From Escherichia coli (GTDB taxonomy: Bacteria; Pseudomonadota; Gammaproteobacteria; Enterobacterales; Enterobacteriaceae), in NCBI RefSeq assembly GCF_003334355.1, contig NZ_QOWP01000068.1: 5,921 nucleotides of DNA; one strand, given 5' to 3'. The notes below the pieces were generated by a model, which was not told where the DNA came from, made no database searches, and worked only from the letters and a program-made list of their open reading frames with translations. How positions within the stretch are numbered: the stretch's first letter is position 1; the number at the start of each line of letters is the position of its first letter. The translations under genes and the position numbers were made by a program. This document shows, in pieces, positions 3,101 through 5,921 of the stretch.

Positions 3101-4555
3101 ATGAATAATAAGGGCTCCGGTCTGACCCCAGCTCAGGCACTGGATAAACTCGACGCGCTGTATGAGCAATCTGTAGTCGCATTACGCAACGCCATTGGCA
3201 ACTATATTACAAGTGGCGAATTACCTGATGAAAACGCCCGCAAACAAGGTCTTTTTGTCTATCCATCACTGACCGTAACCTGGGACGGTAGCACAACCAA
3301 TCCCCCCAAAACGCGCGCATTTGGTCGCTTTACCCACGCAGGCAGCTACACCACCACGATTACTCGCCCTACTCTCTTTCGTTCGTATCTTAATGAACAA
3401 CTTACGTTGCTGTATCAGGATTATGGTGCGCATATCTCTGTGCAACCCTCGCAGCATGAAATCCCCTATCCTTATGTCATCGATGGCTCTGAATTGACAC
3501 TTGATCGCTCAATGAGCGCTGGGTTAACTCGCTACTTCCCGACAACAGAACTGGCGCAAATTGGCGATGAAACTGCAGACGGCATTTATCATCCAACTGA
3601 ATTCTCCCCGCTATCGCATTTTGATGCGCGCCGCGTCGATTTTTCCCTCGCACGGTTGCGCCATTATACCGGTACGCCAGTTGAACATTTTCAGCCGTTC
3701 GTCTTGTTTACCAACTACACACGTTATGTGGATGAATTCGTTCGTTGGGGATGCAGCCAGATCCTCGATCCTGATAGTCCCTACATTGCCCTTTCTTGTG
3801 CTGGCGGGAACTGGATCACCGCCGAAACCGAAGCGCCAGAAGAAGCCATTTCCGACCTTGCATGGAAAAAACACCAGATGCCAGCATGGCATTTAATTAC
3901 CGCCGATGGTCAGGGTATTACTCTGGTGAATATTGGCGTGGGACCGTCCAATGCTAAAACCATCTGCGATCATCTGGCAGTGCTACGCCCGGATGTCTGG
4001 TTGATGATTGGTCACTGTGGCGGATTACGTGAAAGTCAGGCCATTGGCGATTATGTACTTGCACACGCTTATTTACGCGATGACCACGTTCTTGATGCGG
4101 TTCTGCCGCCCGATATTCCTATTCCGAGCATTGCTGAAGTGCAACGTGCGCTTTATGACGCCACCAAGCTGGTGAGTGGCAGGCCCGGTGAGGAAGTCAA
4201 ACAGCGGCTACGTACAGGTACTGTGGTAACCACAGATGACAGGAACTGGGAATTACGTTACTCAGCTTCTGCACTTCGTTTTAACTTAAGCCGGGCCGTA
4301 GCAATTGATATGGAAAGTGCAACCATTGCCGCGCAAGGATATCGTTTCCGCGTGCCATACGGGACACTACTGTGTGTTTCAGATAAACCGTTGCATGGCG
4401 AGATTAAACTTCCCGGCCAGGCTAACCGTTTTTATGAAGGCGCTATTTCCGAACATCTGCAAATTGGCATTCGGGCGATCGATTTGCTGCGCGCAGAAGG
4501 CGACCGACTGCATTCGCGTAAATTACGAACCTTTAATGAGCCGCCGTTCCGATAA
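3101..4555 (+). CDS. amn: AMP nucleosidase (EC 3.2.2.4)
   Basis: 484-aa frame from ATG 3101 (MNNKGSGLTPAQALDKLDALYEQ...), preceded by GGAGA at 3091-3095. The C-terminal half shows nucleoside phosphorylase/hydrolase-fold features (VNIGVGPSNA, AIDMESATIAAQG). The 536-aa ORF in the track starts inside the shiA 3' end and is not accepted. Confidence 0.95.
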   Translation: MNNKGSGLTPAQALDKLDALYEQSVVALRNAIGNYITSGELPDENARKQGLFVYPSLTVTWDGSTTNPPKTRAFGRFTHAGSYTTTITRPTLFRSYLNEQLTLLYQDYGAHISVQPSQHEIPYPYVIDGSELTLDRSMSAGLTRYFPTTELAQIGDETADGIYHPTEFSPLSHFDARRVDFSLARLRHYTGTPVEHFQPFVLFTNYTRYVDEFVRWGCSQILDPDSPYIALSCAGGNWITAETEAPEEAISDLAWKKHQMPAWHLITADGQGITLVNIGVGPSNAKTICDHLAVLRPDVWLMIGHCGGLRESQAIGDYVLAHAYLRDDHVLDAVLPPDIPIPSIAEVQRALYDATKLVSGRPGEEVKQRLRTGTVVTTDDRNWELRYSASALRFNLSRAVAIDMESATIAAQGYRFRVPYGTLLCVSDKPLHGEIKLPGQANRFYEGAISEHLQIGIRAIDLLRAEGDRLHSRKLRTFNEPPFR

Positions 4556-4822
4556 TAAGTTCTGAACCTTCTCATCAGAAATAGATGTGAAGGATTAAGT
4601 AAGACATCTGGCAAATAGCCTGCAATCAACGCGGGCTGTTTGCTTCCTTGGGCAGATGCGAGTTTCATTATCGTCTTAATGATTTCCGCATATTAAAAGC
4701 ATGTATGCTTTCAAAATATAATTATAAAAAATCCCGCCAACAACATTAGTTTTTATAAAACAAAATATAAGATTATGGCTTTAGAATATTTTTATTTCTA
4801 ATAGACGAGATTTTTCCGGTTA

Positions 4823-4831
4823 TGATATAAT
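4823..4831 (+). promoter_or_regulatory. Candidate extended -10 promoter element for yeeN (TGATATAAT)
   Basis: TGnTATAAT at 4823-4831, about 66 nt upstream of the yeeN GTG, within a 342-bp AT-rich intergenic region. No convincing -35 at 17-bp spacing, which is compatible with an extended -10 promoter. Prediction from sequence only. Confidence 0.35.
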
Positions 4832-4897
4832 ATGCTGATTTAACACATGTTAACGATTTACCAGTAATGTAAATAAATTTTCGAGGAGATCATTCCA

Positions 4898-5614
4898 GTG
4901 GGACGTAAATGGGCCAATATTGTTGCTAAAAAAACGGCTAAAGACGGTGCAACGTCTAAAATTTATGCAAAATTCGGTGTAGAAATCTATGCTGCTGCTA
5001 AACAAGGTGAACCCGATCCAGAATTAAACACATCTTTAAAATTCGTTATTGAACGTGCAAAGCAGGCACAAGTTCCAAAGCACGTTATTGATAAAGCAAT
5101 TGATAAAGCCAAAGGCGGCGGAGATGAAACGTTCGTGCAGGGCCGTTATGAAGGCTTTGGTCCTAATGGCTCAATGATTATCGCCGAGACATTGACTTCA
5201 AATGTTAACCGTACGATTGCTAACGTTCGCACAATTTTCAATAAAAAAGGCGGCAATATCGGAGCGGCAGGTTCTGTCAGCTATATGTTTGACAATACGG
5301 GTGTGATTGTATTTAAAGGATCAGACCCTGACCATATTTTTGAAATTTTACTTGAAGCTGAAGTTGATGTTCGTGATGTGACTGAAGAAGAAGGTAACAT
5401 TGTTATTTATACCGAACCTACTGACCTTCATAAAGGAATCGCGGCTCTAAAAGCAGCTGGAATCACTGAGTTCTCAACAACAGAATTAGAAATGATTGCG
5501 CAATCTGAAGTTGAGCTTTCCCCAGAAGATTTAGAAATCTTTGAAGGGCTTGTTGATGCCCTTGAAGATGACGACGATGTACAAAAAGTTTATCATAACG
5601 TCGCAAATCTCTAA
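4898..5614 (+). CDS. yeeN: YebC/PmpR-family protein (DUF28), YeeN
   Basis: 238-aa ORF with GTG start at 4898 preceded by GAGGAG (4882-4887). The N-terminus [27 protein letters not shown] parallels the YebC-family N-terminus (GHSKWANIKHKK...), and the tail is acidic (EDDDDVQKV). Recognised as E. coli YeeN from memory. Confidence 0.93.
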
Positions 5615-5623
5615 TTATATTTT

Positions 5624-5660
5624 AAAGAAATCTGTCTTTACGGCAGATTTCTTTAATCTC
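5624..5660 (+). terminator. Candidate intrinsic terminator downstream of yeeN (AT-rich hairpin, possibly bidirectional)
   Basis: Inverted repeat AAAGAAATCTG (5624-5634) / CAGATTTCTTT (5644-5654), 11 bp perfect with a short loop, followed by TTTAATCTC. The stem is AT-rich so strength is uncertain. Begins 10 nt after the yeeN stop. Confidence 0.45.
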
Positions 5661-5844
5661 ATATAACCCTTATAAAAAATATAATGTTCAACTCGTCATA
5701 TTGATTATAAAAAATCCCCGTTCCCAGAGAAATAATATTTATTAAAATTCCAGTTCTTCTTTTTCTGATTACAGAAGGCAAAGTGGCAATTACGCATAGT
5801 TTCCCGATAAAGACGCGATAGCGACATCCCGCATAAGGCATTTT

Positions 5845-5867
5845 GGTAATGACTCCAACTTATTGAT
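5845..5867. repeat. IS1 terminal inverted repeat (IRR), 23 bp
   Basis: ggtaatgactccaacttattgat; differs from the repeat at 158-180 at a few positions, as expected for IS1 IRL versus IRR. Confidence 0.85.
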
Positions 5868-5921
5868 AGTGTTTTATGTTCAGATAATGCCCGATGACTT
5901 TGTCATGCAGCTCCACCGATT
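5860..5921 (-). CDS. insB: IS1 InsB (transposase C-terminal part), 3' fragment truncated by the window edge
   Basis: Minus-strand reading gives ...SVELHDKVIGHYLNIKHYQ followed by stop TAA (complement of 5862-5860), matching the InsB/InsAB' C-terminus from memory. Confidence 0.75.
   Translation of the reverse strand, partial: SVELHDKVIGHYLNIKHYQ

Follow-up and report, generated by a model that had tools for sequence, protein, structure and literature searches.

The spacer between amn and yeeN in Escherichia coli is a composite of the ancestral amn flank, DNA specific to E. coli and a yeeN cassette, and both its AT-richness and its type of promoter reflect a foreign origin that had been missed by the original prediction. 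It is very likely best explained by the import of a cassette of the Lactococcus type, with an extended -10 promoter that would be read by the sigma-70 polymerase and on which H-NS would have a mild effect. The window, i.e. the whole stretch of 5,921 nucleotides that was analysed, comprises the shiA-amn-yeeN region of E. coli, followed from 5845 by the end of an IS1 copy. The stop codon of amn occupies 4553-4555 and yeeN begins with a GTG codon at 4898, which delimits a spacer of 342 bp (4556-4897). The features recovered in and around this spacer are:

4610-4644, plus strand: hairpin with a 14-bp stem, read as the amn terminator (-23.8 kcal/mol, z = -4.1)
4645-4711, no strand: AT-rich DNA found only in E. 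coli, without a match to the Salmonella or Lactococcus loci; the start of the approximately 1.5-kb block between amn and asnW
4654-5026, no strand: promoter island 2054637_373, converted from the U00096.2 coordinates given in Table 1 of PMC3661553
4712-4801, plus strand: upstream A/T-rich part of the enterobacterial yeeN cassette, recognised by its Salmonella homology and containing copy 1 of a direct repeat (4721-4735)
4802-4807, plus strand: hexamer TAGACG in the -35 position, with 4 of 6 consensus matches, 18 bp from the -10 (promoter scan)
4823-4831, plus strand: extended -10 element TGATATAAT, made up of TG, A and a perfect TATAAT (promoter scan and conservation)
4838-4897, plus strand: predicted 5' UTR of about 60 nt (fold, alignment of eight strains, and alignment with the L. 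kimchii leader from 4861)
4898-5614, plus strand: coding sequence of yeeN (yebC2-type), 238 aa, with a GTG start (NCBIfam NF009044, 348 bits)
5622-5656, plus strand: yeeN terminator hairpin with a 15-bp stem, in the right part of the cassette (-18 kcal/mol, z = -8.1)
5704-5718, plus strand: copy 2 of the 15-nt direct repeat ATTATAAAAAATCCC, an exact repeat with a spacing of 983 bp that brackets yeeN
5845-5921, no strand: end of an IS1 copy between yeeN and asnW, outside the promoter region (IS1 transposase annotated in genomes with identical matches)

The earlier description of a 342-bp AT-rich spacer with long A/T runs was borne out by these coordinates and by a G+C content of 31.6% for the spacer as a whole (41% in 4556-4640 and 28% in 4641-4897, with amn at 50%); the two runs quoted in support of it were located at 4714-4735 and 4751-4774. 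The coding sequence of yeeN is likewise AT-rich, as had been claimed, with an overall G+C content of 40.2%, the earlier figure of 37% having been a 60-nt sample. The designation of the entire spacer as an untranslated region was looser, in that a 5' UTR of no more than about 60 nt is predicted and the spacer opens with 89 nt of amn 3' flank, terminator included. This segment (4556-4644) would be the ancestral flank of amn, ending in a strong hairpin.

The ancestral arrangement emerges from a comparison with the DNA around amn that was fetched from 80 other species. In none of these 80 species is yeeN found within 5 kb of amn, and their homology to the window at the nucleotide level ends at the amn stop codon. 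The gene order in the sister taxa is amn, a spacer of 45-900 bp, tRNA-Asn (asnW, on the minus strand) and yeeO, and this order is seen in the sister Escherichia lineage (approximately 91% identical), E. albertii, Enterobacter cloacae and others. The spacer of the sister species contains a G+C-rich hairpin, GCAAAAAGCCCGC..GCGGGCTTTT, that immediately adjoins the tRNA-Asn 3' end. The hairpins of three sister species have their best alignment at window 4611-4640, and an nhmmer profile built from seven species recovered its best window match here, in the syntenic place, albeit with marginal significance (E = 0.097 over 11.8 kb). One pair of the hairpin stem is C-G, T.G or T-A depending on the E. 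coli strain. The element at 4610-4644 can be read as a probable relic of a bidirectional terminator that abuts the 3' end of asnW in the sister species. Given the retention of this ancestral hairpin and the gene order of the sister species, about 1.4-1.5 kb of extra DNA extends in E. coli from approximately 4645 to asnW, and this E. coli-specific block, missing in the relatives, would have come to lie between the hairpin and the tRNA gene. A match of 4660-4740 to the spacer of the sister Escherichia lineage was dropped as it is not collinear, and the hairpin match was preferred.

A few individual genomes present variations on this locus. One genome labelled as E. coli (NZ_JAATUR010000007.1) has amn and yeeO sequences with only some 91% identity to those of E. 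coli, lacks yeeN at the amn locus and has an unrelated 314-bp spacer (6456-6769) instead; it is probably a cryptic Escherichia lineage, and as such useful for dating the insertion. In another E. coli genome (NZ_OZ261667.1) an IS4-like ISVsa5 is present in the amn-yeeN spacer, to the left of window position ~4697 and thereby upstream of the conserved promoter, with both the promoter and yeeN intact. The IS1 end at 5845-5921 is a strain-specific insertion: collinearity with strain EF7-18-58 stops at 5844, and the DNA is uninterrupted here in most E. coli genomes. At the other end of the window, upstream of shiA, a 371-aa ORF on the minus strand (316-1431), situated in a stretch with a G+C content of 33-38%, could be a further foreign gene; it shows a weak match to LPS heptosyltransferase (TIGR02193, 37.6 bits, far under the cut-off) and possibly resembles yeeL.

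The yeeN cassette extends from about 4712 to about 5680 (approximately 0.95 kb) and would form a self-contained unit consisting of A/T-rich upstream DNA, promoter, leader, gene and terminator. It is also found in Salmonella, on a different island. Blastn comparisons of window 4786-5679 with the Salmonella copies gave 83-88% identity over the aligned stretches, and a weaker similarity reaches back to approximately 4712-4730, so that the left edge of the cassette is fuzzy between 4712 and 4786. The unit shared with Salmonella includes the TAGACG hexamer, the promoter, the leader, the gene and the terminator hairpin, the last of which has a counterpart in Lactococcus in the form of that genus's own hairpin at the same position. 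The yeeN copies of Salmonella occupy unrelated positions; serovar Infantis carries the gene as STM4499, adjacent to yjhP (STM4500) and further genes of unknown function. Searches for a phage or true plasmid carrier of the cassette in the corresponding collections gave mislabelled chromosomes and distant Firmicute yebC genes, and no carrier. Being a solitary gene equipped with a promoter and terminator of its own, and having an odd composition and insertion sites that vary with the host, yeeN is comparable to phage "morons" and other autonomous imported units. It differs from the morons in lying outside any prophage, in the absence of a carrier element among those searched for and in having a chromosomal housekeeping locus as its donor context.

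The closest relatives of YeeN beyond the enterobacteria are from Lactococcus kimchii (89% at the amino acid level), L. termiticola (84%) and Streptococcus (78%). At the nucleotide level yeeN and the yebC2 gene of L. kimchii are 80.4% identical, which exceeds the 77.5% identity between L. kimchii and L. termiticola; judged by these values, yeeN appears to nest within the diversity of Lactococcus, and L. kimchii, at 80% identity, would be a relative of the donor and not the donor itself. In the Lactococcus-type loci yebC2 follows a HIGH_NTase1 gene, and wherever the flank is long enough (loci L083-L085 and L095) the row is rsfS, a methyltransferase, HIGH_NTase1 and yebC2, with different neighbours in L097. 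The donor context of yebC2 is thus a chromosomal housekeeping locus. The nucleotide alignment of E. coli with L. kimchii runs from 4861 through the coding sequence, together with a collinear match at 4820-4834; the segment 4712-4819 is without a Lactococcus counterpart in this alignment. In a five-way alignment of E. coli, two Salmonella-labelled genomes and two L. kimchii-type loci, TGATATAAT and the RBS GGAGA are invariant. The presence of a shared TGATATAAT, leader and Shine-Dalgarno sequence before the Lactococcus gene implies that yeeN brought its extended -10 along as a promoter of the donor type. The cassette would accordingly descend from the yebC2 gene of a Lactococcus-like donor, with its own TGATATAAT, an unstructured leader of about 60 nt and an AGGAG Shine-Dalgarno sequence. 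The yeeN genes of E. coli and Salmonella are likely to be xenologs from a Lactococcus-like (Streptococcaceae) donor, captured as a complete transcription unit, rather than old yebC paralogs, with the Gram-positive-style extended -10, leader and RBS likely to be still driving yeeN in enterobacteria after insertion beside asnW in the E. coli lineage. No statement of a Lactococcus-type origin of yeeN was found in the searchable literature, which treats YeeN as a second YebC paralog.

The extended -10 predicted at 4823-4831 is indeed present, TGATATAAT being perfect, with TG at 4823-4824, A at 4825 and TATAAT (6 of 6) at 4826-4831, 66 nt 5' of the yeeN GTG. The promoter scan couples this TATAAT with TAGACG at the 18-bp spacing (10 of 12 matches, TG present). 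Counting both strands, the 5.9-kb window contains two occurrences of the TGNTATAAT pattern where 0.35 would be expected, and 12 of 200 shuffles likewise reached at least two. As AT-rich DNA could yield a -10-like word by chance, the reality of this -10 rests on its conservation: TGATATAAT is unchanged in eight diverse E. coli strains, three Salmonella-labelled copies and three of the five Lactococcus-type loci, and is replaced by TGCTATAAT in the remaining two, TGnTATAAT being present in all five. The TAGACG hexamer is common to E. coli (invariant in the eight strains) and the Salmonella copies. In several Lactococcus-type loci TGnTATAAT comes immediately after the terminator of the upstream gene, which leaves no room for a -35. 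The same combination of TG, perfect TATAAT, weak -35 and 18-bp spacing characterizes the extended -10 (TGn) promoters of the sigma-70/sigma-A class. This architecture lets the polymerase work without a good -35, and the TGn motif is especially common in Gram-positive promoters, with which its occurrence in the Lactococcus-type homologs is in keeping. The sigma-70 polymerase of E. coli would hence be expected to recognise the extended -10 largely unaided by the weak TAGACG. By comparison with the established promoters of this class, the yeeN promoter is known from its sequence and from published in vitro binding of the holoenzyme to the spacer (PMC3946193).

Directly upstream of the -35 position lies a conserved block, ATATTTTTATTTCT, which from its sequence could be a candidate UP element. 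Transcription is predicted to start at 4837-4838, 6-7 nt past the -10, and would drive yeeN more or less constitutively; the Shine-Dalgarno sequence GAGGAGA (4883-4889) lies inside the resulting 5' UTR. The catalogued start TSS_2057071_+ was rejected as the start of yeeN, as this entry belongs to a Bacillus subtilis column. A second perfect TATAAT at 4717-4722, with TTAAAA at 18 bp, occurs only in the present strain and EF7-18-58 among the eight, and was likewise rejected as an alternative promoter as the sequence is CACAAT in the other six; the present strain has perhaps acquired an additional promoter-like site upstream at this position.

The spacer is found in 5411 of 5426 complete E. coli genomes, with an identity to the window that ranges from below 90% (97 genomes in the 80-90% band) to 100%, K-12 being 94.4% identical (5.6% different). 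The distribution of this variation along the locus was obtained from the alignment of the eight diverse E. coli strains, with the following shares of variable sites:

amn: 4.9%
4556-4640: 21%
4641-4735: 12.6%
4736-4800: 10.8%
leader, 4841-4897: 1.8% (1 of 57)
yeeN: 3.3%
5681-5845: 23.6%

The most variable stretch is thus the non-coding DNA downstream of the yeeN terminator (5681-5845), and 4764-4817 contains a single variable site among the eight strains. The variability of the spacer and of 5681-5845 fits the raised diversity that has been published for acquired DNA bound by H-NS. Given that TAGACG and TGATATAAT are invariant and the leader nearly so, with variable flanks on their sides, this pattern of substitution points to a single, presumably functional promoter and leader within fast-changing non-coding DNA.

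Published coordinates were transferred to the window by adding 1977 to the U00096.2 positions to obtain those of NC_000913.3 and then subtracting 2051960, with yeeN at NC_000913.3 2056858 as the anchor; the offset of 1977 is a presumed one, in agreement with the presumed U00096.2 position of yeeN. The spacer has figured in several genome-wide surveys. In the genomic SELEX study of Shimada et al. 2014 the amn>yeeN spacer was bound in vitro by the sigma-70 holoenzyme alone (PMC3946193, Table 3), and the constitutive promoter predicted in that study, TAGACG-18-TATAAT, is the one described here; the same table carries an H-NS mark on the spacer. This agreement strengthens the earlier assignment of an extended -10 promoter to yeeN, and the reading of the spacer as a promoter region is already known, having been published and catalogued, and of an ordinary kind. 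Panyukov and Ozoline 2013 listed amn(+)/yeeN(+) 2054637_373 among 78 E. coli "promoter islands", regions in which PlatProm predicts start points at a very high density (PMC3661553, Table 1), and noted it as H-NS-bound in the Kahramanoglou and Oshima data and as foreign by five predictors. Higashi et al. 2016 (PMC4720273, S3 Table) scored H-NS binding for the spacer and credited it with a known promoter, the distance between strains averaging 0.028, and Forrest et al. 2022 placed yeeN among H-NS-bound genes, flagged as not horizontally acquired according to their databases (PMC8894471). In the RNA-seq data of the latter study yeeN has a logCPM of 9.43 in the wild type, which does not look silent, and is raised approximately 2-fold in an hns deletion (logFC +1.0, P = 0.036), a weak derepression. 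Inspection of published H-NS data, as proposed earlier, thus found the spacer H-NS-bound in several data sets (PMC3661553, PMC4720273, PMC3946193, PMC8894471), and of the nucleoid-associated proteins put forward by the original prediction it is H-NS, not Fis or IHF, that is documented here. A scan for the high-affinity H-NS motif TCGATAAATT found no enrichment. A binding peak of a minor sigma factor holoenzyme has also been reported inside yeeN, at window 5349 (U00096.2 2055332; PMC5493296).

These observations invite comparison with the xenogeneic silencing mediated by H-NS. The G+C content of 28% in the spacer and 40% in yeeN, far under the 50% of amn, is combined with foreign ancestry, and the yeeN DNA resembles the typical targets of such silencing in being foreign, low in G+C, lineage-specific, bound by H-NS and flanked by diverse non-coding DNA. 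It differs from them in the mildness of the silencing (approximately 2-fold), in its fixation throughout the species and in coding for a translation factor, not for a virulence or accessory protein. H-NS would coat this DNA on account of its G+C content of about 28% and lower its output modestly, about 2-fold. The amn-yeeN spacer also shares with the promoter islands of Shavkunov, Panyukov and Ozoline, of which it is one of 78, an AT-rich and H-NS-bound sequence beside a gene predicted to be foreign (PMC3661553). It departs from this transcriptionally poor class in having a single conserved promoter, a traceable donor origin and fairly abundant yeeN RNA.

It might be argued from this membership that the spacer is primarily a silencing platform, in which overlapping sites trap polymerase and H-NS in a heterochromatin-like state with mostly abortive transcripts, the extended -10 being one of many non-productive sites. 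The islands are as a class poorly productive, with low transcription and high H-NS occupancy (PMC3661553), which fits awkwardly with a working yeeN promoter, and the promoter scan did recover four promoter-like sites in the spacer, two per strand. However, over 4400-5921 the number of such sites is 7, against 4.6 +/- 1.7 expected, and hence not clearly enriched, and the other perfect -10 (4717-4722) is private to two of the eight strains. Moreover, conservation is far stronger in the -35, the -10 and the leader than in the adjacent spacer, the -10 being kept across phyla, and yeeN RNA is abundant in the wild type (logCPM 9.4) and only 2-fold up without H-NS, all of which makes a silencing platform quite unlikely. 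An integrase-mediated island at the 3' end of asnW, of which the AT-rich DNA would be the scar and the 15-nt repeat the duplicated attachment site, was considered as another source of the composition of the spacer. In its favour, the block specific to E. coli fills precisely the interval from the old terminator to the 3' end of asnW, and is thus tRNA-adjacent; asn tRNA genes are hotspots of islands; and ATTATAAAAAATCCC is highly non-random, 15 nt having been reached in 0 of 2000 dinucleotide-preserving shuffles of the two flanks, with its core TTATAAAAAAT occurring four times around yeeN, including one minus-strand copy with a single mismatch. Against this, there is no integrase gene in the 1.5-kb block, and a remnant of the tRNA-Asn 3' end beside the hairpin is unsupported (841 of 1000 shuffles score as well), so that the block is not a classical tRNA island. 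The repeat is in addition not derived from a tRNA, no direct repeat like it was found around the Salmonella cassettes, and its copy 1 appears to fall within the stretch that E. coli and Salmonella have in common; as described above, no carrier was found in the plasmid and phage collections. An integrase-borne origin is therefore regarded as unlikely, and ATTATAAAAAATCCC may be an insertion or duplication scar.

Control of yeeN by an element transcribed from the upstream region, be it a structured cis-regulatory RNA (leader or riboswitch), a small RNA or a small protein, is in our view highly improbable. The length of the spacer, a hairpin (GCAGGT..ACCTGC) in the 5' UTR of yeeN in both Salmonella and L. 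kimchii, and a 33-codon ORF with a TTG start (4648-4749) would be compatible with it. However, a permissive Rfam scan of 4300-5921, of the kind proposed earlier for excluding a structured RNA, recovered nothing near a gathering score, the best matches in the spacer being Thr and Trp leaders on the amn terminator with 17-24 bits against cut-offs of 41-55. The fold of the E. coli leader is no better than that of shuffled sequences (z = +0.9), and the ORF is situated in a highly variable part of the spacer with no ribosome-binding signal seen. Neither E. coli nor four of the five Lactococcus-type lineages examined (L084, L095-L097) have the 5' UTR hairpin. Where it occurs, as GCAGGTyAyTArCCTGC (L087 5948-5964, L086 5946-5967 and L083 2948-2964, with window ~4845-4865 as the counterpart), its sequence appears to work as a marker of shared ancestry that links the enterobacterial copies to an L. 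kimchii-like donor, and not as a conserved regulator. An imported cassette that carries its own promoter thus remains the reading preferred over these three alternatives.

What is added here to the published record is that the promoter, together with the leader and the gene, was imported from a source of the Lactococcus type to a site beside asnW, and is thereby an instance of H-NS-bound, acquired AT-rich DNA with its native promoter. As a mere promoter region the spacer is of little importance, resembling many other AT-rich upstream regions bound by H-NS. YeeN/YebC2 is a translation factor that relieves ribosome stalling at polyproline and has been compared in this role with its "paralog" YebC (PMC12234827, PMC11990639). 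A recent import of the E. coli and Salmonella copies from a Lactococcus-type source, if correct, would explain both the difference in behaviour between YeeN and YebC and the close likeness of YeeN to the Streptococcus protein. The locus would also provide a clean natural example of a promoter functioning across phyla, as might be expected of an extended -10 that needs no host-specific -35 or activator. Further, it would offer a dated, species-wide case in which H-NS and selection have shaped the flanks of an acquired gene, with the promoter and leader frozen and the adjacent non-coding DNA quickly diverging.
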